A DNA stretch of 64,000 bases from an uncultured Verrucomicrobiota bacterium (GTDB lineage Bacteria > Verrucomicrobiota > Verrucomicrobiia > Limisphaerales > UBA9464): NCBI GenBank assembly GCA_903910585.1, contig CAIWAH010000141.1, positions 9,261-73,260 on the forward strand, read 5' to 3'. Below the pieces are notes generated by a model. That model worked only from the letters and a program-made list of their open reading frames with translations. It made no database searches and was not told where the DNA came from. Below are positions 28,580-42,875 of the stretch, piece by piece (positions within the stretch are counted from its first letter, which is position 1; every line of letters starts with the position of its first letter). Both the position numbers and the translations under genes were made by a program.

Positions 28580-28608
28580 TTGACGTGTAACTACCTCGGT
28601 AGTATTAC
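28580..28608 (+). promoter_or_regulatory. candidate sigma70-like promoter with embedded dyad operator upstream of the BlaI-type repressor gene
   Basis: TTGACG (28580-28585), a 17-nt spacer, then TATTAC (28603-28608). The dyad ACTACC-TC-GGTAGT (28590-28603) occupies the spacer. The ATG at 28626 leaves a very short leader. Confidence 0.4.
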
Positions 28609-28625
28609 CGTGGTCGTCAATCGCT

Positions 28626-29012
28626 ATGCCCGCACCTCCCCTCCGCCTTGGCGACCTGCAGCTCCGCATTCTCGAGGTTCTCTGGGAACATCCCGATGCG
28701 GGCGTGGGTGCCGTTCACGAGGCGCTCAAGCCCGAACGGGACCTCGCCTACACCACGGTCGCCACGATGCTGCGCAAGATGGAGGCGCGCGGACTGGTCA
28801 CGCACCGGGAGGAAGGGCGCAGCTTCCTTTACCGTGCGGCGGTGGCGGCCGACGACGTGAACCGCAGCGCCGGTGACCACTTTGTCGAACGCCTGTTCGA
28901 GGGCAGCCTGGCCGACGCCGTCAGCCATCTGCTCACGACCCGCGAGGTCAGCCGGGGAGAGCTCGAGCAGTTGGAAAAGCTCATCCGCGAAGCCAAACGG
29001 AGGGCCAAATGA
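28626..29012 (+). CDS. BlaI/MecI/CopY-family transcriptional repressor
   Basis: Winged-helix block LQLRILEVLWE..YTTVATMLRKMEARGLV and the usual ~125-aa size. ATGA overlap with the M56 gene. Confidence 0.9.
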   Translation: MPAPPLRLGDLQLRILEVLWEHPDAGVGAVHEALKPERDLAYTTVATMLRKMEARGLVTHREEGRSFLYRAAVAADDVNRSAGDHFVERLFEGSLADAVSHLLTTREVSRGELEQLEKLIREAKRRAK

Positions 29013-32000
29013 TTCCCGATCTCGCGTGGTGGGGACGGCTGATCGGACTGCTCGCGGCTGAGGCGGCGCTGCTGGTCGCCGTGGCGACCGCGGCCTCATG
29101 GCGGGTGCGCTCGGCTCAGTGGCAACGGCTGGTCTGGCAGTCGGCGTTTCTGGCCGTGCTGCTGGTCTGGAGCGCCGAGCTCGCCGGGGGGCGCGCTTGG
29201 ATCGCCCGTTTTCGTCCGGAACTGGAACTGTCCCGAAGGGTCACGGCGCGGGTGATTGGGGAAATTCCGGTGCGCGGAGAAGAAGTGGCCTTCGAGTTCC
29301 CGGGGGACGTCCCGAGCGCCCCGGCAACCTTGCCGCCAGAATTGCCGCAAGCCCGGTGGTGGCCGGGTGCGTTCTGGCTCACCGGTCTCGTGGTGATGCT
29401 CTTGAGGACAATCGGAAGCCGAGCGTGGGTGGCTTGGCGGTTCCGTCGCAGCCGCCGTCAGGAGGCCCTAGCTGAAGTTGGCCAGCGCCGGTCGGAAGTC
29501 GGGAGCCCACAAGGGGGCGTCACTTCGGCTCCTACGCAGGAGGTGGTTGGGCGGCTCCGCGCCCGGTTGGGCCTGGGCGCAGTGCGCGTCGTCGTGTGGC
29601 CGCGGCTGTGCGGGCCAGTGGCCTTCGGCATTTTCCGACCAACGGTGGCGGTGCCGGCGGACTTCGCGGAGCGGTTCCCGCCGGCGCAACGCGAGGCGAT
29701 GCTGGCGCACGAGTTGGGCCACCTCGCGCAGCGTGATCCCCTGTGGCTGCTTGTGGCCGAACTCGTATGTGCGTTCGCATGGTGGCATCCGGCCGTGTGG
29801 TGGGCGCGGCGGCAGTTCCGGGCGGCCTGCGAGGCGGCGGCGGACGAGGCAACGGCGCTCGTGCCCGGCGGTCGGGTGGCGCTCGCGGAGGCGCTGGTGA
29901 GCGTCGGCCGTGAACTCACCGCGCCCGGCGGTGTCGGCGTCGGCGGCAGCGGGTTGAAGTCGGAACTCGCCCGCCGCGTGCAGGCACTGGTGGAACATCC
30001 TGGCGACGGGGGCGCGGTGCGGGGAGCCGGTCGTTGGTTGTTGCGGACGGGTATCGCCGCAGTGCTGGTCGCGTTGCTGTTCGCGCCGTGGCCCGGTGAT
30101 CGCAACGGCTTGGGAACAGTGTTGGCTGCGGTGCAGGCGGAGACGGCTCAATCCGCCTCCCAAGCCGGCAAGCGGCTCCAGACAATCTCCGACGTGCTGG
30201 CCGACCCGCAATTCCGTGAAGTGGTGAAGGCGCTGGAAGCCGCCGCGGGGGATTCGCCTCCCAGAGCGCAATCGCCGGCTGACCTTTTTGCGGCGGATAA
30301 GCGGCCTTCGTTGGAATCGGTGGTGCACGAGGGCATCCCGGTGGCAGGAATCGGCTACGACAAAAGACCGATGCTCGGGGAGACAAATGCGCTCCACCCG
30401 CTCCCACCAGAGACCTTCACGAACCCGCGGGACTCGCGGAAGCGTGCCTCGGCCGTGGAATCGTTGAAGGCCGCCAAACAGGCGCTGGATGAAGCTGCGG
30501 CACTTCACGGCCGGACTTCGCTGGAATGGACCAATGCCTTCAACCGTCTGCTCGCTGCCGATCGCACCTTGGCCGGACTGATGCAGGCTAATCCGGGAAA
30601 CTTGGCCGACGACCCCAACCGCAGCCGCCTGCTGGCCGCCTTGGAGACGCTGGTGGTCCCCGGCTTTGAGGCGAACCGCGAACGGCTAGATGCCGTGGTG
30701 CGGCGCCTGGAATCCGCAGCCAAGTCGGCAGATCCAGAGGGGAAGGGTTTGAACTTCATCATCAATGAACCTGACGACGCCGGGGCCTTGTCCGCGACTG
30801 TCATCAACGTGCCGACACTGCGTGGGGCCAGGCTCATGGATGTGGTTTTTAATGTGGTCACCGGGGCGGAGCCGCCGATTGCGGCCGCCGTGGAGAGCTA
30901 CGCCGTGGTCTTTTCCGTGCGCCCGCCGGTGACCGTGCAACTGCATACCCGCCAGTTCCGGCTGTCGGCGCCGGACTTCGCCCGTCACCTCCAACCGTTC
31001 TTGCCGGTGGGCGAAACCAACTCGGCAAAAGCGTTCCAGCTCGCCGTCCGCGCCTTCTGTGCGGCCAACGGCATCGAGTTCCCAAGCGCAATCACCATTG
31101 CCCAGGGCAGCACGCCGCCGCCGGACCAGTCCGCGATCTTCTACAACGACCGCACGGGACAGCTCTTCGTCCGGGCGACGCTGGAGAATTTGGAGCGAAT
31201 CGAGCAGGCGCTCCAAAAACTGGACCTCCCACCCGCCCAGGAAGCGAAGCCACGGGCCGAACTGGAAGCCCAACTGCGCGCCTCGGGGAATACCCTCGCG
31301 GAACTGCGCTCCCGCTACCGTGAGCGACACCCTCGCGTGGTCGAAGCGCAGACGCAGCACGACGACTTGCTGGCCCGGCTCCGGGTGCTGTCCCAGACCA
31401 AGGCTTTGACTAACGCAGCGGTGGTCATCTCATCACCAGCGCCCACGCCGCCGCTCCTCACTCGGCAGTTCCGGGTGGATTCCGGCAATTTTTCCGCCCG
31501 AGTGCTGGCAGCTTTCGATCCCGTGGCGGAGGTCGCCCGCAAGTTGGATGCATTGCCCAATCGCGAACTGATTGCCTCCGATGTGGGCGCCTCGGTGTCG
31601 CGCACCGCGCTGCCCGCGTCGGTTCCATCGACGCCGTTGCCCGGCGTTTCTGGGAAGGGCGATACCAAAGATCAGCAGCTCGGAGGTGCGATTCATGCGT
31701 ATTTTCGGAAGCACGGTGTGGAGTTCCCAACGCCAACATCGCAGGTCACCTCAGGTTCCGAGGCGCAGGAACGTCCTGCGCTCTTTTTCAAACCCGATTC
31801 GGGAATCCTCTTTGTCCGCGCCTCGCTGGAAGACATGGCGACGGTGGAGCGGGCCTTGGAGGGGCTTGAACCGACGGATCAGATGCCGCAGGTGGAACTC
31901 GCCGTCACCCTTGTCGAGATCGCCGATGGCGGGCCCGACGACGTGGGGCTCGACTGGCTGTTTGGCCAGGCGGCGACGAACAATCCGCCCGTGGTGTCCG

Positions 32001-32713
32001 CGCTCGCCACGAACCTGCCGGGCGTGGCCGGCGCCTTGCAGGGCGACCGGCTACGGGTGGACCGGCTGGCCGTGGCTGGCCAGTCAGCGGTGCTCAGCGC
32101 GGAGCAGTTCGCAGCCTTGGAAGGCCGCCTCAAGGAGCGCCACAGCGTGGATTTCCTGTCGGCGCCCAAGGTCATCACGCTGTCCGGCCGGCAGGCACAG
32201 GTGTCGGTCGGCGAAATCCGCACGCTCGTGACCGGCGCGGTGGCGACCGACGGTTCGAAGACCAACGAGGCGGGCATCCAGTATCTCACCGACCAGGTGC
32301 CCGTCGGTCCCGTGGTGGACCTGTTTCCGACAGCCAGCGAAGGCGCCTGGCAGGTGAAGGTGGTGGCATCCGTCACCGAGTTCCTCGGCTATGACGACCC
32401 TGGCAAAACCAACCGCGTGCAGGCCGCGACGGCGGAAGGCAAACCGCTGAAGGGCACGCCGCCGCTGCCCCGGCTGCGGGTCCGCGAAACGCAGTCCACG
32501 GCCTCGGCGAAGGCGGGCGAAGTCATCGCGCTGCGCGGGCCGCTGGCGGAGAACGTGGTCCGCTTCAAGGACAAGGTGCCGGTGCTGGGCGACGTGCCCC
32601 TGCTTGGCCGGCTTTTTCGCAGCGAAAGCCAGCAGACCCGCCGCACCCGCCTCTATGTGTTCGTGCGGCCGGAAACGGTGGACGCCCAAGGAAATCGTCC
32701 GGCCGCAAAGTAA
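29009..32713 (+). CDS. M56 (BlaR1-like) membrane metalloprotease fused to periplasmic N-domain-like repeats and a C-terminal secretin domain
   Basis: TM helices plus HELGH (29708-29722) and a further TM (GIAAVLVALLF). C-terminal secretin hallmarks: QVELAVTLVEI, LSAPKVITLSGRQAQVSVG, and KVPVLGDVPLLGRLFRSE (core 32576-32620). Confidence 0.85.
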   Translation: MIPDLAWWGRLIGLLAAEAALLVAVATAASWRVRSAQWQRLVWQSAFLAVLLVWSAELAGGRAWIARFRPELELSRRVTARVIGEIPVRGEEVAFEFPGDVPSAPATLPPELPQARWWPGAFWLTGLVVMLLRTIGSRAWVAWRFRRSRRQEALAEVGQRRSEVGSPQGGVTSAPTQEVVGRLRARLGLGAVRVVVWPRLCGPVAFGIFRPTVAVPADFAERFPPAQREAMLAHELGHLAQRDPLWLLVAELVCAFAWWHPAVWWARRQFRAACEAAADEATALVPGGRVALAEALVSVGRELTAPGGVGVGGSGLKSELARRVQALVEHPGDGGAVRGAGRWLLRTGIAAVLVALLFAPWPGDRNGLGTVLAAVQAETAQSASQAGKRLQTISDVLADPQFREVVKALEAAAGDSPPRAQSPADLFAADKRPSLESVVHEGIPVAGIGYDKRPMLGETNALHPLPPETFTNPRDSRKRASAVESLKAAKQALDEAAALHGRTSLEWTNAFNRLLAADRTLAGLMQANPGNLADDPNRSRLLAALETLVVPGFEANRERLDAVVRRLESAAKSADPEGKGLNFIINEPDDAGALSATVINVPTLRGARLMDVVFNVVTGAEPPIAAAVESYAVVFSVRPPVTVQLHTRQFRLSAPDFARHLQPFLPVGETNSAKAFQLAVRAFCAANGIEFPSAITIAQGSTPPPDQSAIFYNDRTGQLFVRATLENLERIEQALQKLDLPPAQEAKPRAELEAQLRASGNTLAELRSRYRERHPRVVEAQTQHDDLLARLRVLSQTKALTNAAVVISSPAPTPPLLTRQFRVDSGNFSARVLAAFDPVAEVARKLDALPNRELIASDVGASVSRTALPASVPSTPLPGVSGKGDTKDQQLGGAIHAYFRKHGVEFPTPTSQVTSGSEAQERPALFFKPDSGILFVRASLEDMATVERALEGLEPTDQMPQVELAVTLVEIADGGPDDVGLDWLFGQAATNNPPVVSALATNLPGVAGALQGDRLRVDRLAVAGQSAVLSAEQFAALEGRLKERHSVDFLSAPKVITLSGRQAQVSVGEIRTLVTGAVATDGSKTNEAGIQYLTDQVPVGPVVDLFPTASEGAWQVKVVASVTEFLGYDDPGKTNRVQAATAEGKPLKGTPPLPRLRVRETQSTASAKAGEVIALRGPLAENVVRFKDKVPVLGDVPLLGRLFRSESQQTRRTRLYVFVRPETVDAQGNRPAAK

Positions 32714-34005: not shown

Positions 34006-34413
34006 TCAGTTTTCGTCCAAGGTCACTTGGCCGCCGGCTTCGATGGCTTTCTTGGCCATCTTCAGGCGCGACGGCAGCGTGGCGGTAGGATTCTGGCCGC
34101 AGGGATTGATGTTGTAGGTCTCGCCCATCACGGAGGTGGGGAATTTGCCGCTGTTGAAGTAAGGCGCGAGGTCCGATTCGGTCGGCGTGTCGCTGTCACC
34201 CTTCTTGTTCTCCGCCATCCAGAGCTGCTTCTGGTTTTGGATCACCCGCAGGTTGTTGATGATCGAGTTGTAGCGGGCGGTGGCCATCGAGTTGCCCACC
34301 GCGGGGATCGCGATCATCGCCAGCAGGCCGATGATCATGACCACGATCATGATTTCGATAAGCGTGAAACCGGCCCGGCGGGCGGCGCGTGAGGAGTTGT
34401 GGCGGACGTGCAT
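34006..34413 (-). CDS. prepilin-type N-terminal cleavage/methylation domain protein (pseudopilin-like)
   Basis: AGFTLIEIMIVVMIIGLLAMIAIP class-III signal peptide motif; 135 aa from ATG 34413. Confidence 0.85.
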   Translation of the reverse strand: MHVRHNSSRAARRAGFTLIEIMIVVMIIGLLAMIAIPAVGNSMATARYNSIINNLRVIQNQKQLWMAENKKGDSDTPTESDLAPYFNSGKFPTSVMGETYNINPCGQNPTATLPSRLKMAKKAIEAGGQVTLDEN

Positions 34414-34630
34414 GGTCGAAAGCGTTGTGTTTGCGCGGACGTCACGGGAAACACCGGCAACCGAGAATGGTTGCAGGGCCTGCGCCTGCGGAATTGCGGG
34501 AAAGGTAGAGGCTCGCCGGGCCGGTTCAACGCCGAATCCGCCCGAAGACAGCTTCGAAGCCCGATTCCAAATGGAAACGGCCGCCGGGAAGTGCAACTTC
34601 GCGGCGGCCGTCGGAAACGGGAATGGGGCC

Positions 34631-35875
<1,245 letters not shown>

Positions 35876-36073
35876 GTTCGCAAAAGCGGGCGCGAGTGAA
35901 CGGCAGCCAATCGGGCCGGGGAAGGGGAAACTTTGCGGCGCGGCGAGCGGCCGGTTGGGCGCAGGGAGGGGCGGAAATCCCATTGCGTGGGGGCGGTTGC
36001 CAACATGAAGCTTGCCCCTCGACGCTGGGTGCGTCATGCTTTGTTTAACAAGTTTAGCAACTAACTTAGGATT

Positions 36074-37777
36074 ATGTCCGAAGCCGCTGGCAGTGCTGCC
36101 CCCGCCGAAAAGGCGCTTACTCGCAACGAGAACCTGAAGATTGCCGTGCCCACGCTGGCCGGAAACATCGCGGCCACGCTGGCGGACCCGAATGCGGACT
36201 GCTTTTCGCCGGACGATGAGCAGTTCCTGAAGTTCCATGGCATCTACCAGCAGGATGACCGCGACCGCCGCAAGCAGGGCAAGACGCATATCATGATGAT
36301 CCGCGGGCGCATTCCCGGCGGCGTGCTGTCCGCGAAGCAGTGGATCACCTTCGACAACCTCGCGACCCAATACGCCAACAACACGCTGCGCATCACGACG
36401 CGCCAGAGCGTGCAATTCCACGGCGTCGCCAAGTCTGGTCTGGGCGCGCTGATGAAGGGTCTCAACCAGGCGATGGTGGACACGCTTGCGGCCTGTGGCG
36501 ACGTGAACCGCAACGTGATGGCGGCGCCGACGCCGGCCAGCACCCGGGCACGCCAGCAGGTTTACGAACACTCCAAACTGGTTTCCGAGGCGTTGCTGCC
36601 CAAGACCAAGGCCTACCATTCCATCTGGCTCGACGGCGTGCAGCTGAACCTTGAAGCGCCCGAGAACAAGGATTTCGTGGATCCGCTCTACGGCCGGCAA
36701 TACCTGCCGCGCAAGTTCAAGGCGGCCTTCGTCATTCCGCCGGTGAATGACATGGACATCTTCACCAACTGCCTGGGTTTCATCGCCATCGTCGAAAACG
36801 ACCAGGTGATCGGCTACAACCTGACGGTTGGTGGCGGCATGGGCCGGAGTCATGGCAACGCCGCCACCTATGCGCGGTTGGCAGATGTCCTTGGCTTCAT
36901 CACGCCGGACCAACTGGTTCCCGTCTCCAAGGCGGTCCTGACGGTCCACCGCGATTTCGGCGACCGCACCGATCGGAAACATGCCCGGCTGAAATACGTT
37001 CTCCAGGAGCGGGGCGTGGAGTTTGTCCGGGCCGAAGTCGAGGCGCGCGCCGGCATCAAGTTCGGACCGGCGCGTCCCTACGGATTCAGCACCACGGGTG
37101 ACCGCTACGACTGGCAGCGGGCGCTCGACGGATCGTGGTATTGCACGCTGTTCGTCTCGATGGGCCGCGTGAAGGACGCCGACGGATGGCAGATGAAGAC
37201 GGCGCTGCGGCGGGTCGCGGAACGGTTCCCGGGGGTCGAATTCCGCCTGACCGGCAACCAGAACGTCATGCTCGCCAATGTCGCGGACACGGACCGTGCG
37301 GCGGTGACCGCGCTGCTGTCGGAACACGGCGTGAAGACCGAAAAACAGGCGTCGGTGCTGCACGCGGCGGCGATCGCCTGTCCGGCCTTGCCGACGTGTG
37401 GTCTATCACTGGCGGAGTCGGAGCGTTATCTGCCGAGCCTGCTGACCCAGATCGAGGGACTCTGCGGGGAAGTGGGGCTGGGCGGTGAGGAGATCGTCAT
37501 CCGCATGACCGGCTGTCCGAACGGATGCGCCCGCCCCTACATGGCCGAGATCGGCTTTGTCGGCAAGGCGCCCGGTCGTTACCAGGTCTGGCTCGGTGGC
37601 AACGCCAACGGCACCCGGCTGAACCGTGTCTGGAAGGAAATGGTGAAGGATGCCGACATCCTGAACGAACTCCGGCCGCTGCTGACCCGGTTCAAAAATG
37701 AACGCACGGTTGGCGAGCGCTTCGGCGACTGGGCGGCCCGGTCGGTTTGGACTGAACAGGTGCCGTCCGCCAATTGA
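36074..37777 (+). CDS. cysI: assimilatory sulfite reductase hemoprotein (CysI/Sir type)
   Basis: [21 protein letters not shown], and siroheme/4Fe-4S cysteines [11 protein letters not shown] and [10 protein letters not shown]. Confidence 0.92.
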
Positions 37778-38798: not shown

Positions 38799-39464
38799 AT
38801 GACTCCCGAAAAAATCGCCCTGGCCAACGCCGATCTCCGGAACAAGTCCGCCCTCGACATCGTGAAGTGGGGCTTCGCCCAAGCCGGTGGTCGCGCCATC
38901 GTCTCGACCAACTTCCGACCCTACGAGGCCGTCATCTTGCATCTGGTCACGCAGGTGCAGCCCGACATCCCGGTGCTGTGGGTGGACCACGGCTACAACC
39001 GGCCTGCCACCTACAAACACGCCGAGGATCTCAAGGCCCGCTTGAAGCTGAACATCAAGCCCTACCTCCCGAAGCTCACCGCCGCCCACTACGACGCCGT
39101 CTTCGGCGGCATGCCGGAGCCAACGCCGGAGAATGAAGAGCGCATCAAAGCCTTCAGCACCGCGATGAAGCTGGAACCCTTCCAGCGTGGCATGAAGGAA
39201 CTGGCGCCGACCGTCTGGATCACCGCCCTGCGCAAGGTGCAGAACCCGAACCGTGCCGGCCTCGACATCGTTTCGCCCGACGGGAATTTCAATTCCCTCA
39301 AGCTCAGCCCCGTCTTCCACTGGAGCGACGCCGAGATGGAAGCCTACCTCAAGCAGCACAACCTGCCCAACGAGTGGGACTACTTCGACCCCGCCAAGGC
39401 CGACGAGAAGCGCGAGTGCGGCCTGCACGCCGCCTGGGGCGGCAAAGCCGTGGCCCAAGCCTGA
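38799..39464 (+). CDS. cysH: phosphoadenosine phosphosulfate (PAPS/APS) reductase family protein
   Basis: PAPS_reduct fold with C-terminal catalytic ECGLH. This is the only Cys in the protein (no CC..CxxC Fe-S motif). Confidence 0.85.
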   Translation: MTPEKIALANADLRNKSALDIVKWGFAQAGGRAIVSTNFRPYEAVILHLVTQVQPDIPVLWVDHGYNRPATYKHAEDLKARLKLNIKPYLPKLTAAHYDAVFGGMPEPTPENEERIKAFSTAMKLEPFQRGMKELAPTVWITALRKVQNPNRAGLDIVSPDGNFNSLKLSPVFHWSDAEMEAYLKQHNLPNEWDYFDPAKADEKRECGLHAAWGGKAVAQA

Positions 39465-39494
39465 AGTTTCTTTCTCCGGTCAAGAGTCCCCCCC

Positions 39495-40433
39495 ATGAGC
39501 AGCTATCATCTCGATCACCTCCAGTATCTGGAGACCGAAGCGATTCACATCATGCGTGAAGTTGCGGCGGAATTTGAGCGGCCCGCCCTATTGTTCTCCG
39601 GCGGCAAGGATTCCATCTGCCTTCTCCGTCTGGCCGAGAAAGCCTTCCGCCCTTCGGACATTCCGATGCCGTTCCTCAACGTCGAGACCGGCCACGAGTT
39701 TCCCGAGCTGATCGAGTTTCGCGACCGTCGCGCCAAGCAGCTCGGTGCGAAGCTCATCGTCCGCTCCGTGGACGAGGGCATCGCCAAGGGCTTCGTCACG
39801 CCCACGCCCGGCCAGATCAGCCGCAACCAGCTCCAGATCCCCGTCCTGCTGAACGCCATCGAGGAGTTCCGCTTCGACTGCGCCATCGGCGGCGCCCGGC
39901 GCGACGAGGAGAAAGCCCGCGCCAAGGAACGCTTCTTCAGCTTCCGCGACGCCTTCGGCCAATGGGACCCGAAGAACCAGCGTCCCGAGATCTGGAACCT
40001 CTACAACGCGCGCCTGAACCAGGGCGAAAACATGCGCGTCTTCCCGCTCTCCAATTGGACCGAGATGGACGTCTGGGAATACATCCGGCAGGAGAAGCTG
40101 GAGGTGCCCAACATCTATTTCAGCCACACCCGCGACGTCTTCCGCCGCGCCGGCCAATGGCTGCCCGTGCCCCCGCCGCACACCGATTCGACCAAGCCCG
40201 ATCCCTTCGCCGGCGGCCGTCCGAAGCCGAACGAGCCGATCCAGTCGATGGTCTGCCGCGTCCGCACCATCGCCGACATGATCAGCACCGGCATGATCGA
40301 CAGCCCGGCGACGACCGTGGACGACATCATCGGCGAAGTCGCCGCCGCCCGCGTCACCGAACGCGGCACCCGCGCCGACGACAGGGCGAGCGAAGCCGCG
40401 ATGGAAGACCGCAAAAAGGCTGGGTATTTCTGA
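39495..40433 (+). CDS. cysD: sulfate adenylyltransferase subunit 2
   Basis: LLFSGGKDSICLLRLA PP-loop, ..GGARRDEEKARAKERFFSFRD.., WNLYN; canonical CysD. Confidence 0.95.
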   Translation: MSSYHLDHLQYLETEAIHIMREVAAEFERPALLFSGGKDSICLLRLAEKAFRPSDIPMPFLNVETGHEFPELIEFRDRRAKQLGAKLIVRSVDEGIAKGFVTPTPGQISRNQLQIPVLLNAIEEFRFDCAIGGARRDEEKARAKERFFSFRDAFGQWDPKNQRPEIWNLYNARLNQGENMRVFPLSNWTEMDVWEYIRQEKLEVPNIYFSHTRDVFRRAGQWLPVPPPHTDSTKPDPFAGGRPKPNEPIQSMVCRVRTIADMISTGMIDSPATTVDDIIGEVAAARVTERGTRADDRASEAAMEDRKKAGYF

Positions 40434-40483
40434 GCTAAAGCCTACTTACCGTGATTCGATCGCAGATCCTGCGTTTCTGCTCT

Positions 40484-40963
40484 ATGACCAACTTGCGCTT
40501 CAACGTCCGAGCCAAAACCAAGAAAGCGGACATTGCCATGATCGCGAGGTTCGAGGCATTGATCGGCTGCCGGTTGCCTCCCGAGTATTCTGCCTTCCTG
40601 CAGGCTCAAAACGGGGGGGAACCGCGGCCGAGAGAATATGTTCGTGTTTCCGACGGGGAAAAGAGCGCGGTTGATTTTTTCTATCACTTGGGAAGCGGAA
40701 TCTGGTCGCTCCAGTCTATCGCAAGATTAAGTTGGAGGGAGAAGACCGTTCCAAAGGATTTCCTGCCGATCGCGCGTGACTTTTTTGGCGGAGATATCTG
40801 TATGCCGCTTAGTGGCATTGAAGTCGGGAGAGTCAGATATTGTCCGGATGACTTGGGTTTGCTCGAATTCGGAACGGATGGGTTCCCGGCTGAATCGTCC
40901 ACAGTGTTGATTGCCAACTCGCTGAATGGCTTTTTGGAAAGCTTCCACGAACTCGACGGCTAA
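40484..40963 (+). CDS. SMI1/KNR4 (SUKH-1) family immunity-like protein
   Basis: IARFEALIGCRLPPEYSAFLQAQNGG.. and ..FLPIARDFFGGDICM.. are typical SUKH-1 blocks. About 50% GC in hand-counted lines. The track ORF starts at 40451; ATG 40484 is preferred. Confidence 0.75.
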   Translation: MTNLRFNVRAKTKKADIAMIARFEALIGCRLPPEYSAFLQAQNGGEPRPREYVRVSDGEKSAVDFFYHLGSGIWSLQSIARLSWREKTVPKDFLPIARDFFGGDICMPLSGIEVGRVRYCPDDLGLLEFGTDGFPAESSTVLIANSLNGFLESFHELDG

Positions 40964-40994
40964 GGTTGCACTGAGACCAATCGTGGACATCGCG

Positions 40995-41231
40995 ATGAAC
41001 CCCGAATTCCAGCCCTTGGCTGACTCGCTCTACTGGGAGCGCGTTGAGCGAGCTCGTCGGCTGACGCCGGAGCAGCGGCTCATGGCCGGGCCGGAGCTGT
41101 TCGACTACGCCTGCACCATCACCCTGTCCGCGCTCCGTGAGCAGATGCCCGAGGCCAGTGAAGCCCAGTTGCTGGAAGCGTTGCGTCGTCGCTTGGCGGT
41201 GAAGCGCAACGTGGAGGACATCGCCGCCTAA
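40995..41231 (+). CDS. small hypothetical helical protein
   Basis: 78-aa ORF from ATG 40995 (MNPEFQPLADSLYWERVERARRLTPEQRLMAGPELF..). No family name recalled. Confidence 0.45.
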   Translation: MNPEFQPLADSLYWERVERARRLTPEQRLMAGPELFDYACTITLSALREQMPEASEAQLLEALRRRLAVKRNVEDIAA

Positions 41232-41277
41232 AGCGGCGGGCTTGAGATTCATGTGATGTCAGCGCACCATCCATCGT

Positions 41278-41478
41278 GTGATCGACCCCGAGGACATCGT
41301 TTCAGCCGAGCAGGCTGCGTGGTATCGGCTCACGCCCTTGGAGCGTCTGCGCGAGACGGAGAAGCTATGGGCGCACTACCTGTCGATCGGAGGTGAACTT
41401 GATCCCGAACCTGATCCCCAAAGTCCGTTCTTCGATCCCGCTGATCCGTATCTGCGATCAAGCGGAACGCCCTGCTAA
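41278..41478 (+). CDS. small hypothetical protein
   Basis: 66-aa ORF, GTG start (..EQAAWYRLTPLERLRETEKLWAHYLSIGGELDPEPDPQSPFFD..). No family name recalled. Confidence 0.4.
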   Translation: MIDPEDIVSAEQAAWYRLTPLERLRETEKLWAHYLSIGGELDPEPDPQSPFFDPADPYLRSSGTPC

Positions 41479-41558
41479 GTTTCCTCCGAAGTTTTCCGTT
41501 ACCCACGAGTGGCAGGCAACGGAGTGCGTTCCAATTTTCCTCAGCTAGACGATTTCCC

Positions 41559-42875
41559 ATGTCCGCCAATCACCCCATCGAACTCCTCCGATTCAACACC
41601 TGCGGCAGCGTTGACGACGGCAAGTCCACGCTCATCGGCCGGCTCCTCTACGACTCCAAGTCGATCATGGAGGACCAGATGGAGGCGCTGGAGCGTTCCG
41701 CCGACATCACCGGCGGCGGCCAGATCAACCTGGCCAACCTGACCGACGGCCTCCGCGCCGAACGCGAGCAGGGCATCACCATCGACGTCGCCTACCGCTA
41801 CTTCGCCACCCCGCGCCGGAAGTTCATCGTCGCGGACACCCCGGGGCACGTGCAATACACCCGCAACATGGTCACGGGCGCCTCCACGGCGAACCTCTCC
41901 ATCGTGTTGGTGGACGCCCGCATGGGCGTGATCGAGCAGACCCGCCGCCACACCTACATCGCCGCGCTGCTGGGCATTCCCCATCTCGTCATCGCGGTGA
42001 ACAAGATGGACCTCGTGGACTGGAGCGAGGCCCGCTTCACGGAAATCCGCGACGAGATCGAAGGCTTCCTGCCGAAGCTGTCGTCGTTCAAGGATGTGAA
42101 GTTCATCCCCATCAGCGCGCTCAACGGCGACAATGTCGTGGAGCCGTCCAAGCACACGCCGTGGTATGTCGGGCCTTCACTGCTGGGGCATCTGGAGACT
42201 GTCCATATCGCCAGCGACTGGAACCTGAGCGCGCTGCGTTTCCCGGTGCAGTGGGTGAACCGGCCGAACAACCCGACCAACAAGGAATTGCACGACTTCC
42301 GCGGGCTGAGCGGCCAAATTGCGAGCGGTATCGTGAAGGTGGGGCAAAAGGTCATGGTGCTGCCGAGCGGCATGAAGAGCACGGTGAAGGAGATCTGGAC
42401 CTTCGACGGCTCGCTGCCAGAAGCCTTCTGCCCGCAGAGCGTCACGCTCCAGCTCGCCCATGACTTGGACATCAGCCGGGGCGACATGATCGTGGGACTC
42501 GAGGGATTGCCCGGCATGGGCACTGACCTCCACGCGCGCGTATCCTGGATGAACCAGCGTCCGCTCCAGCGCGGAAAGAAATACTTCCTCAAACACAGCA
42601 CCCAGACCGTCCAGGCGATGGTGACCGCGCTGGAAAGCCGGATCGACATCCAGACCTACGACGAGCTGCCCGAGCCGGCGGAACTCGCGATGAACGACAT
42701 CGGGGTGATCCGCCTGAAAACCGCCAAGCCCCTCATCTACGACGGTTACGGCATCAACCGGCTGACCGGCGCGTTCATCCTCGTCGAGCAGGGCACCAAC
42801 GCGACGATCGCGGCCGGCATGCTGTATCCCGCCCTGGAAGCGGTGAAGCCCGAGTATAACGACTTCGCGATCTGA
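41559..42875 (+). CDS. cysN: sulfate adenylyltransferase subunit 1 (GTPase), no fused APS kinase domain
   Basis: CGSVDDGKSTLIGRLL, DTPGH, NKMD. At 438 aa it lacks a CysC domain. Confidence 0.95.
   Translation: MSANHPIELLRFNTCGSVDDGKSTLIGRLLYDSKSIMEDQMEALERSADITGGGQINLANLTDGLRAEREQGITIDVAYRYFATPRRKFIVADTPGHVQYTRNMVTGASTANLSIVLVDARMGVIEQTRRHTYIAALLGIPHLVIAVNKMDLVDWSEARFTEIRDEIEGFLPKLSSFKDVKFIPISALNGDNVVEPSKHTPWYVGPSLLGHLETVHIASDWNLSALRFPVQWVNRPNNPTNKELHDFRGLSGQIASGIVKVGQKVMVLPSGMKSTVKEIWTFDGSLPEAFCPQSVTLQLAHDLDISRGDMIVGLEGLPGMGTDLHARVSWMNQRPLQRGKKYFLKHSTQTVQAMVTALESRIDIQTYDELPEPAELAMNDIGVIRLKTAKPLIYDGYGINRLTGAFILVEQGTNATIAAGMLYPALEAVKPEYNDFAI

Follow-up and report, generated by a model that had tools for sequence, protein, structure and literature searches.

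A BlaI-type repressor gene coupled to an M56 protease–secretin fusion gene in Verrucomicrobiota: a candidate autoregulated cassette

BlaR1-type proteases are known chiefly for sensing antibiotics, and secretins are normally exported via a signal peptide and contact their inner-membrane partners non-covalently. What, then, would the two be doing in a single polypeptide? The question is raised by a locus in a 64-kb stretch of DNA from an uncultured Verrucomicrobiota bacterium (64,000 nucleotides of contig CAIWAH010000141.1, here called the window), in which a BlaI-type repressor gene is followed by an open reading frame (ORF) of 1234 amino acids (aa) that begins with a BlaR1-like M56 protease module and ends in a secretin core. 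An earlier note on this DNA, made from the letters alone, had described the locus as a BlaI-type repressor coupled to an M56 protease in which a secretin replaces the penicillin-binding sensor, and Pfam, profile searches of the PDB and Foldseek all agree with that description. The two-gene unit looks like a self-contained, autoregulated cassette, because its candidate operator is found only at blaI promoters and its neighbourhood has no other conserved gene. By analogy with BlaR1, the state of the tethered secretin may be signalled via the M56 protease to BlaI within such an autoregulated cassette, a reading to which we assign a probability of roughly one half.

The repressor gene and the protease–secretin fusion gene

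The features that define the two genes and the two ends of the fusion protein are the following.

28626..29012, + strand: blaI-like gene, encoding a BlaI/MecI/CopY-family winged-helix repressor of 128 aa (Pfam Penicillinase_R)
29009..32713, + strand: M56 protease–secretin fusion gene, 1234 aa, with its start inside the blaI stop (ATGA) (ORF, Pfam, NCBIfam, GC content at third codon positions, GC3)
29009..30094, + strand: BlaR1-like M56 module, residues 1-362, comprising transmembrane helices TM1-TM3, a membrane-associated gluzincin protease and TM4 (hydropathy, AlphaFold2 (AF2) model, Foldseek)
29708..29722, + strand: HELGH zinc-binding/catalytic motif, residues 234-238 (invariant HExxH)
29735-29737, + strand: D243, a motif residue invariant in the alignment
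29831-29845, + strand: E275-x3-D279, motif residues invariant in the alignment
31889..32680, + strand: secretin core, residues 961-1224 (Pfam, PDB profile search, Foldseek)

The ATGA at 29009-29012, in which the TGA of blaI is shared with the ATG of the 1234-aa ORF, had been pointed out in the earlier note and lies exactly at those coordinates; judging from this overlap, the repressor gene is translationally coupled to the fusion gene. The same order recurs in all 20 of the loci compared, where blaI precedes the M56-secretin gene and in most cases overlaps it by 4 bp. Pfam Penicillinase_R matches the 128-aa protein over its full length (E=1.4e-30, profile positions 1-114 of 115), and the protein stays under the equivalog cutoffs of NCBIfam (CopY, 56.8 bits vs 121.95; BlaI_of_BCL, 38.6 vs 180), that of MecI being likewise not reached.

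In the fusion protein, hydropathy places hydrophobic segments at about residues 7-31, 41-59, 118-140 (weaker) and 343-362, and the helices of an AF2 model of residues 1-660 coincide with them (mean predicted local distance difference test score, pLDDT, 77.8; >90 for most of residues 1-300). Peptidase_M56 (PF05569) is matched at 1.5e-20 (74.0 bits vs a cutoff of 31) by residues 192-326, which cover profile positions 157-295 of 296 only. Entries of S. aureus BlaR1 solved by cryo-electron microscopy (cryo-EM; 8exq, 8exs, 8ext, 8exp, 8exr) make up the six best Foldseek matches of the AF2 model in the PDB (E 3e-4 to 4e-2, probability 1.0), followed by minigluzincins and Ste24. At the level of sequence, BlaR1 is not reached by a single-sequence phmmer search against the PDB and the profile match to entry 8exp is weak (E=0.33), and for this reason membership in the M56/BlaR1-like group rests on Pfam, the motifs and Foldseek. 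The HELGH motif is located at 29708-29722, as had been proposed, and the further M56 signature residues, whose absence would have counted against the assignment, are all present: H234, E235, H238, D243, E275 and D279 are invariant across alignments of 44 and 49 sequences and correspond to the motif HExxH, an Asp five residues past the second His, and ExxxD, as defined in the PvmSR preprint (10.64898/2026.08.03.742534). Together with the retention of HExxH in 123 of 125 fused proteins, this invariance argues for an active protease.

This module does not make the protein a canonical beta-lactam sensor. The NCBIfam model blaR1_generic gives a weak match (E=1.3e-8), which is what a canonical BlaR1/BlaI system sensing beta-lactams has in its favour; the match is restricted to the protease region and reaches 33.7 bits against a cutoff of 400. 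Pfam finds no transpeptidase or penicillin-binding domain in the 1234-aa protein, and no beta-lactamase or PBP2a-type gene was seen near the cassette within the window. The canonical sensor is thus ruled out, its defining sensor domain being absent, and we give this explanation next to no weight; with no penicillin-binding domain and a blaR1_generic score far under the cutoff, the protein is a member of the wider M56/BlaIR family rather than a BlaR1 orthologue.

By the predicted topology, the chain past residue 362, i.e., its C-terminal 870 residues, is periplasmic. When the sequence is read under the positive-inside rule, TM1 and TM3 are each followed by an Arg-rich loop, and hydropathy detects no hydrophobic segment after residue 362. 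The hydrophobic stretch of TM4 closes with FAPWPG, which has Pro or Trp at positions that need small residues, and no canonical signal-peptidase site is apparent after TM4, judged by eye without a predictor.

At the other end of the protein, Secretin (PF00263) is matched by residues 1041-1224 at 1.1e-21 (77.6 bits vs a cutoff of 27.5), from profile position 2 to 168 of 169. In the PDB, ExeD (6i1x) is matched at 8e-15 with the single sequence and at 3e-26 with the profile, alongside further GspD, PilQ, pIV, InvG and RcpA chains, and the 39 best Foldseek matches are all secretins (E 1e-12 to 9e-7), with low TM-scores (0.2-0.4), which is expected for the comparison of an isolated protomer model with chains from rings. 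The C-terminal secretin domain claimed in the earlier note, which could have failed against secretin models, therefore stands on both Pfam and the structural searches. In family alignments, the canonical KDKVPVLGDVPLLGRLFR motif shows little or no variation, and the fusions strictly conserve the whole core, its last strands and the canonical VPxLGDxPxLGxLF motif included. The protein ends 10 residues past the last strand and hence has no S-domain; neither an N-terminal Sec signal peptide nor a lipobox is present, the N-terminus being taken by the four-TM M56 module. Among the NCBIfam secretin models, Amuc_1098 scores best (126 bits vs a cutoff of 750), followed by GspD (93 vs 351), MshL (88 vs 250) and PilQ (56 vs 284), and since all scores lie far under the curated cutoffs, the fusion is not an orthologue of any named secretin subfamily, SctC included. 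A search with the secretin core also found another unusual secretin-related fusion, P0184 (613 aa; 1.2e-32, query 13-226 against its residues 64-284), which carries a C-terminal ResA/TlpA-like thioredoxin-fold domain as well.

A sequence search for relatives returned 54 proteins, of which 34 had precomputed matches to both PF05569 and PF00263, and a search by the core alone against 1.84 billion cluster representatives gave 170 matches with E of 1e-30 or better. When local hidden Markov models were applied to 190 proteins, 125 of them, counted as cluster representatives, carried both domains, and most of the 51 'secretin-only' proteins are fragments. Stand-alone full-length secretins with signal peptides turn up only from about 3e-39 onward and give partial matches to the Amuc_1098 family in NCBIfam; the closest of them (P0111, P0142, P0154, P0162, P0167 and P0188) share 41-46% identity with the query across its C-terminal ~210 residues. 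In species-representative genomes, M56 and secretin share a single ORF at 19 loci, each behind blaI. Of the carriers, 17 bear the label Verrucomicrobiota or that of one of its subgroups and one the label 'bacterium', and the remaining one is a cyanobacterium-binned contig of 2.8 kb. The relatives in Planctomycetota, Acidobacteriota and Gemmatimonadota have C-termini of other kinds. The earlier note had proposed a query for Peptidase_M56 plus Secretin and for its taxonomic spread; the outcome is many proteins that form a large Verrucomicrobiota family, not a singleton, and the M56-secretin cassette design is common in this phylum. A rough neighbour-joining tree of M56 domains has one large clade made up almost purely of secretin-bearing sequences, with other C-termini interleaved at its base, a hint that the family was inherited long ago and mostly vertically; it is taken as a hint only because the sample is biased toward secretin-bearing sequences. 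The cyanobacterium-binned contig (JBIKWS010000726.1, locus L014, from a metagenome-assembled genome labelled Cyanophyceae) holds an M56-secretin cassette with a typical operator and is probably mis-binned, since it is short and the other assignable carriers are all Verrucomicrobiota.

The breadth of this family also bears on whether the long ORF could be a pseudogene, or two genes wrongly joined in sequencing or assembly. Separate, overlapping ORFs for the M56 and secretin parts do occur, at L029 (2535-5346) and at L034 (9111-18046), where an M56 ORF of 2573 aa is followed by a secretin ORF of 451 aa with an overlap of about 140 nt; these split forms are probably themselves assembly frameshifts or pseudogenes. 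In the window, the frame is continuous and GC3 is uniform at 0.79 along the entire 1234-aa ORF, the 90% cluster of the query holds three full-length members of 1234 aa (P0001, P0192 and P0194), full-length products identical or almost identical to it are recorded as proteins, and the same fusion, with both ends strongly conserved, recurs in the 125 two-domain proteins and the 19 species-level genomes. The frameshift that the earlier note had named as its own possible undoing is thereby excluded, and the artefact reading is effectively refuted.

The candidate operator and its targets

28580..28585, + strand: putative -35 box TTGACG; in nearly all related loci, the operator is preceded by a TTGAC box at a distance of a few nt
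28590..28603, + strand: operator dyad 1, ACTACCTCGGTAGT, a perfect 6-2-6 palindrome; conserved, and the single such site in the window
28604..28617, + strand: operator dyad 2, ATTACCGTGGTCGT, which abuts dyad 1 and ends 8 nt ahead of the blaI ATG; conserved across loci

Which genes would the repressor control? Just upstream of blaI, between the TTGAC box and the start codon, lies the two-dyad sequence ACTACCnnGGTAGT-ATTACCnnGGTCGT, a palindromic TAC...GTA candidate operator that sits at the cassette's own promoter, as it does for BlaI/MecI/CopY repressors. With a 17-nt spacer, the -10 box would be TATTAC at 28603-28608; both promoter boxes are putative and were assigned from conservation alone. 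No convincing terminator is seen around the cassette. Every one of the 19 M56-secretin loci retains the operator, and so do most of the related M56 cassettes in Verrucomicrobiota and Planctomycetota.

Searches for the operator extended about 10 kb to either side of each locus and also took in exact two-dyad matches. Single-dyad matches (<=1 mismatch) number 41 in the window and 703 kb of related loci taken together, and every one of them lies in a blaI promoter; shuffled versions give 0-3 matches each. An exact two-dyad scan of metagenomes returned at least 120 loci, with blaI directly downstream at 116, adjacent on the other strand at 3, as the site is nearly palindromic, and a contig too short to tell at 1, so that among the matches listed 119 of the 119 assessable ones adjoin blaI. 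The window itself has one operator site, one blaI, one M56 and one secretin, with no second operator copy at up to 2 mismatches. The separate regulon that the earlier note had hoped to reach through the operator dyad did not materialise: across the window, the 703 kb of related loci and the metagenome matches listed, the cassette's own promoter is the sole detectable target. Nor did all-against-all clustering of the ORFs of the 19 M56-secretin loci and of positions 19001-43000 of the window find any conserved neighbour besides the cassette and its shadow ORFs.

Two further observations concern the operator itself. The blaI ATG often lies 0-12 nt past it across related loci. At a distance of 0-3 nt, as in L004, L008, L012, L014, L039 and L040, or of 8 nt, as in the window (28617-28626), the mRNA would be leaderless or nearly so, and a Shine-Dalgarno sequence would not fit in. 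The right half of dyad 2 reads GGTCGT in most M56-secretin loci and GGTAGT or GGTAAT in most non-secretin M56 cassettes, a difference that could be a specificity determinant or reflect only shared ancestry.

The signalling reading and its rivals

If the cassette works by analogy with BlaR1, the secretin part would multimerise in the outer membrane with its N-terminus still tethered to the inner-membrane M56 module, and its state (unassembled or assembled, gate closed or occupied) would be relayed via TM4 and the extracytoplasmic loop to the protease, which would then cleave BlaI and derepress the promoter. The output would be feedback control of the tethered secretin's own synthesis, as a homeostat or a switch, rather than of a separate regulon; this is the simplest circuit, given that no operator is found away from the cassette's own promoter. 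In solved secretins the N-terminus faces the inner membrane, which makes an N-terminal tether to that membrane geometrically natural, and trans-envelope signalling is on this analogy plausible. A more specific form of the idea is somewhat doubtful and we hold it tentatively: one uncleaved polypeptide would span the envelope, and 12-15 copies would form a gated outer-membrane pore, each tethered to an inner-membrane BlaR1-type protease, so that pore opening, occupancy or failed assembly would lead to proteolysis of the repressor, with the cassette's own abundance as the main output.

Several points weigh against signalling by a tethered secretin. A scan with the sigma-70 consensus calls no promoter at the cassette, and distant or degenerate operators outside the scope of the searches would have been missed. 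Family-specific invariant inserts, TEFLGYDxP and PLPRLRVR, lie inside the secretin core, and together with the scores below the equivalog cutoffs they mean that pore formation cannot be assumed. Secretins are 12-15-mers, whereas BlaR1 is a dimer in cryo-EM, and these stoichiometries have no obvious match. Genes of a type II secretion system (T2SS) or a type IV pilus are absent from the window and from the related loci, bar one isolated N_methyl gene, and hence point to no substrate or machine; more broadly, no linked secretin machine (T2SS, type IV pilus, type III secretion system (T3SS) or filamentous-phage assembly) is found in the window, and the 19 related loci share no conserved neighbour.

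Between the M56 module and the secretin core, the following features are recognised.

30095..30649, + strand: variable linker, residues ~363-547, largely disordered or helical (AF2, family comparison)
30650..30928, + strand: beta-alpha-beta-beta-alpha-beta-beta module, residues ~548-640, possibly N0/STN-like (confident AF2 topology)
30944..31240, + strand: Secretin_N domain of the ring-building type, residues ~646-744 (Pfam, AF2)
31235..31396, + strand: long helical hairpin, residues 743-796, bearing the motif LRSRYRERHPRV (AF2 helices at model positions 104-130 and 136-157)
31457..31861, + strand: second N-domain-like module with disordered insertions, residues ~817-951 (AF2)

Across the family, 13 to 920 aa (median 228) separate the M56 module from the core, and both ends are conserved, which is expected if the two ends act in different membranes; in the shortest M56-secretin forms, a Pro/Ala/Ser-rich tether alone connects them. 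In the window's protein, AF2 gives the linker a pLDDT of <50 at residues 414-471 and helices at 473-526, and it predicts two alpha/beta N-domain modules ahead of the core. The Secretin_N match covers residues 654-744 (Pfam, 5e-8, 33.4 bits vs a cutoff of 28.2), on an alpha/beta module that AF2 places at 646-737, and the alignment to PDB entry 6i1x pairs residues 931-955 with the last GspD/ExeD N-domain. For residues 548-640, a profile search of the PDB yields coiled-coil noise only, and Pfam gives a weak STN match in one of 11 homologues (E=0.038). The helical hairpin at 743-796 weakly resembles polysaccharide co-polymerases or chain-length determinants (TIGR03007, E=0.067; KpsMT-KpsE chain 8tsh_F in Foldseek, E=0.038, probability 0.91); stand-alone secretins have reportedly been linked to slime polysaccharide export in a 2025 paper (PMC12475490).

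Two rival explanations keep the architecture and assign it another role. The secretin-homologous part may be a periplasmic reporter subunit, which would co-assemble as a minority subunit into the ring of the organism's stand-alone PilQ/GspD-type secretin or dock beneath it via its N-domains, so that the M56 module would report on a type IV pilus or T2SS encoded elsewhere. In its favour, the closest stand-alone secretins are of the Amuc_1098-like type IV pilus type by their partial NCBIfam matches and 41-46% identical over the C-terminal region, and no cognate machine genes adjoin the cassette. Sister cassettes (L023, L032 and P0045-P0047) that carry Secretin_N without the core suggest, moreover, that M56 has recurrently been combined with parts docking onto secretin machines. 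However, the full core, down to its last strands and the VPxLGDxPxLGxLF motif, is strictly conserved in the fusions, and the short forms retain this core and lose every N-domain, which runs counter to the needs of a pure docking reporter; we therefore consider this explanation unlikely.

Alternatively, the M56 module would be a polytopic anchor or an export/processing device, removed after export, for instance, or serving secretin quality control, with no signalling, and BlaI would autoregulate without regulated proteolysis. The restriction of the operator to the cassette's own promoter fits this explanation, as there is no downstream regulon that would require a signal, and M56 proteins are known in 254 domain arrangements, most of them without a known signal (PMC13492132). 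For an anchor alone, however, neither a blaI retained with translational coupling in 20 of 20 loci nor invariant catalytic residues would be needed, and removal after export finds no canonical signal-peptidase site after TM4 (FAPWPG, as read from the sequence) and no second hydrophobic segment beyond residue 362. We regard the anchor or processing role as rather improbable, and feedback from the tethered secretin to BlaI remains the reading that we prefer.

Surroundings, known systems and significance

The rest of the window is ordinary chromosome, with mnmE, lgt, lnt, ilvD, a hemL-like aminotransferase gene, a Gfo/Idh/MocA oxidoreductase gene and argG, and further with genes for sulfite reductase, PAPS reductase and cysD/cysN-like proteins, pnp, a polyprenyl synthase gene and htpG. 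The isolated gene for a prepilin-type N_methyl protein is located at 34006-34596 (-), two genes downstream of the cassette, and is not a conserved neighbour. The 910-aa ORF at 34631-37363 (-) is a high-GC run-on that resembles argininosuccinate synthase in its C-terminal part only, and its upstream part overlaps the sulfite/nitrite reductase gene at 36074-37777 (+). A sulfate-assimilation cluster with PAPS reductase, cysD-like and cysN-like genes occupies 38799-42875.

Compared with BlaR1-BlaI and MecR1-MecI of S. aureus and Bacillus licheniformis, the cassette shares a Penicillinase_R repressor gene beside an M56 gene, a protease with four TM helices and HExxH, D+5 and ExxxD between TM3 and TM4 for which BlaR1 cryo-EM structures are the best structural matches, and a TAC...GTA dyad operator at its own promoter. 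It differs in that about 870 residues ending in a secretin stand in place of the extracellular penicillin-binding sensor, the repressor gene comes first with an ATGA overlap, no resistance gene lies under the operator, both proteins fall far under the NCBIfam BlaR1 and BlaI cutoffs, and the host is a diderm bacterium of the Verrucomicrobiota. The non-canonical BlaIR systems, i.e., CenIR of C. difficile, PvmSR of P. aeruginosa (10.64898/2026.08.03.742534), a further sensor-less example, and mycobacterial BlaIR, likewise combine an M56 protein lacking a transpeptidase domain with a BlaI-like repressor; their extracytoplasmic domains, however, are short, disordered or absent, whereas the fusion has a large folded domain homologous to an outer-membrane channel. 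According to the CenIR paper, such non-canonical systems account for the majority of M56 proteins, and its InterPro survey counted about 15,000 of these proteins in 254 architectures, with a transpeptidase domain in about 6%, TonB_C as the second commonest arrangement, and Secretin absent from the nine listed architectures with at least 100 InterPro entries (PMC13492132).

The M56-TonB_C fusions, such as TonB1 and TonB10 of Bacteroides thetaiotaomicron, are uncharacterised and have been suggested to act as signal transducers (10.1101/2023.07.07.548152). They resemble the M56-secretins in that M56 is joined to a region that spans the periplasm and makes contact with the outer membrane at its far end, and they differ in that TonB_C only touches outer-membrane receptors, whereas the fusion's own end is homologous to an outer-membrane channel. 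TonB has a Pro-rich spacer, which the Pro/Ala/Ser-rich tethers of the shortest M56-secretins resemble. With GspD, PilQ and the Amuc_1098-family type IV pilus secretins of Verrucomicrobiota, the fusion has in common a canonical core and Secretin_N domains; unlike them, it lacks a signal peptide, an S-domain and linked T2SS, type IV pilus or T3SS genes, and it carries a polytopic protease at its N-terminus.

The proposed regulatory logic also has precedents. In FecA-FecR-FecI, in FlgM export, in ExsE export and in the Psp response to mislocalised secretins, the state of an envelope machine is passed on to transcription, and VirB10 demonstrates that one polypeptide can bridge the inner and outer membranes. 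Whereas those regulatory systems use separate proteins or secreted anti-regulators, the fusion holds the sensor candidate, the tether and the protease in one polypeptide, and its regulator is of the BlaI type. Annotation pipelines already name family members 'M56 family metallopeptidase' or 'GspD/PulD (secretin)/Zn-dependent protease', and full-text literature searches found no experimental study of, or other paper on, the M56-secretin architecture. The parts and the regulatory logic are familiar, and their combination is uncharacterised.

Sister BlaI-M56 cassettes in Verrucomicrobiota and Planctomycetota (L023, L032 and L035; P0032, P0040, P0041, P0045-P0047, P0049 and P0054) join the same protease module to other parts of envelope machines, for example Secretin_N alone, two Secretin_N with Peptidase_S41, SLBB, ExbD, a SecDF P1-head with a secretin, Poly_export, or DUF1559 (PF07596). 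In these two phyla, the combination of M56 and trans-envelope machinery seems to be a general pattern.

The M56-secretin cassette raises the question of how a secretin could be targeted to the outer membrane and assembled there while it is anchored in the inner membrane. Should the secretin part be cleaved off or form no pore, the finding would shrink to one more unexplained M56 architecture. The cassette is worth following, as a minimal system that is widespread within one phylum and can be tested directly. If the signalling reading is true, two genes and one operator would provide a minimal system for studying how the state of an outer-membrane channel is relayed across the periplasm, and at least one branch of the non-canonical BlaIR systems would have a concrete candidate for its signal.

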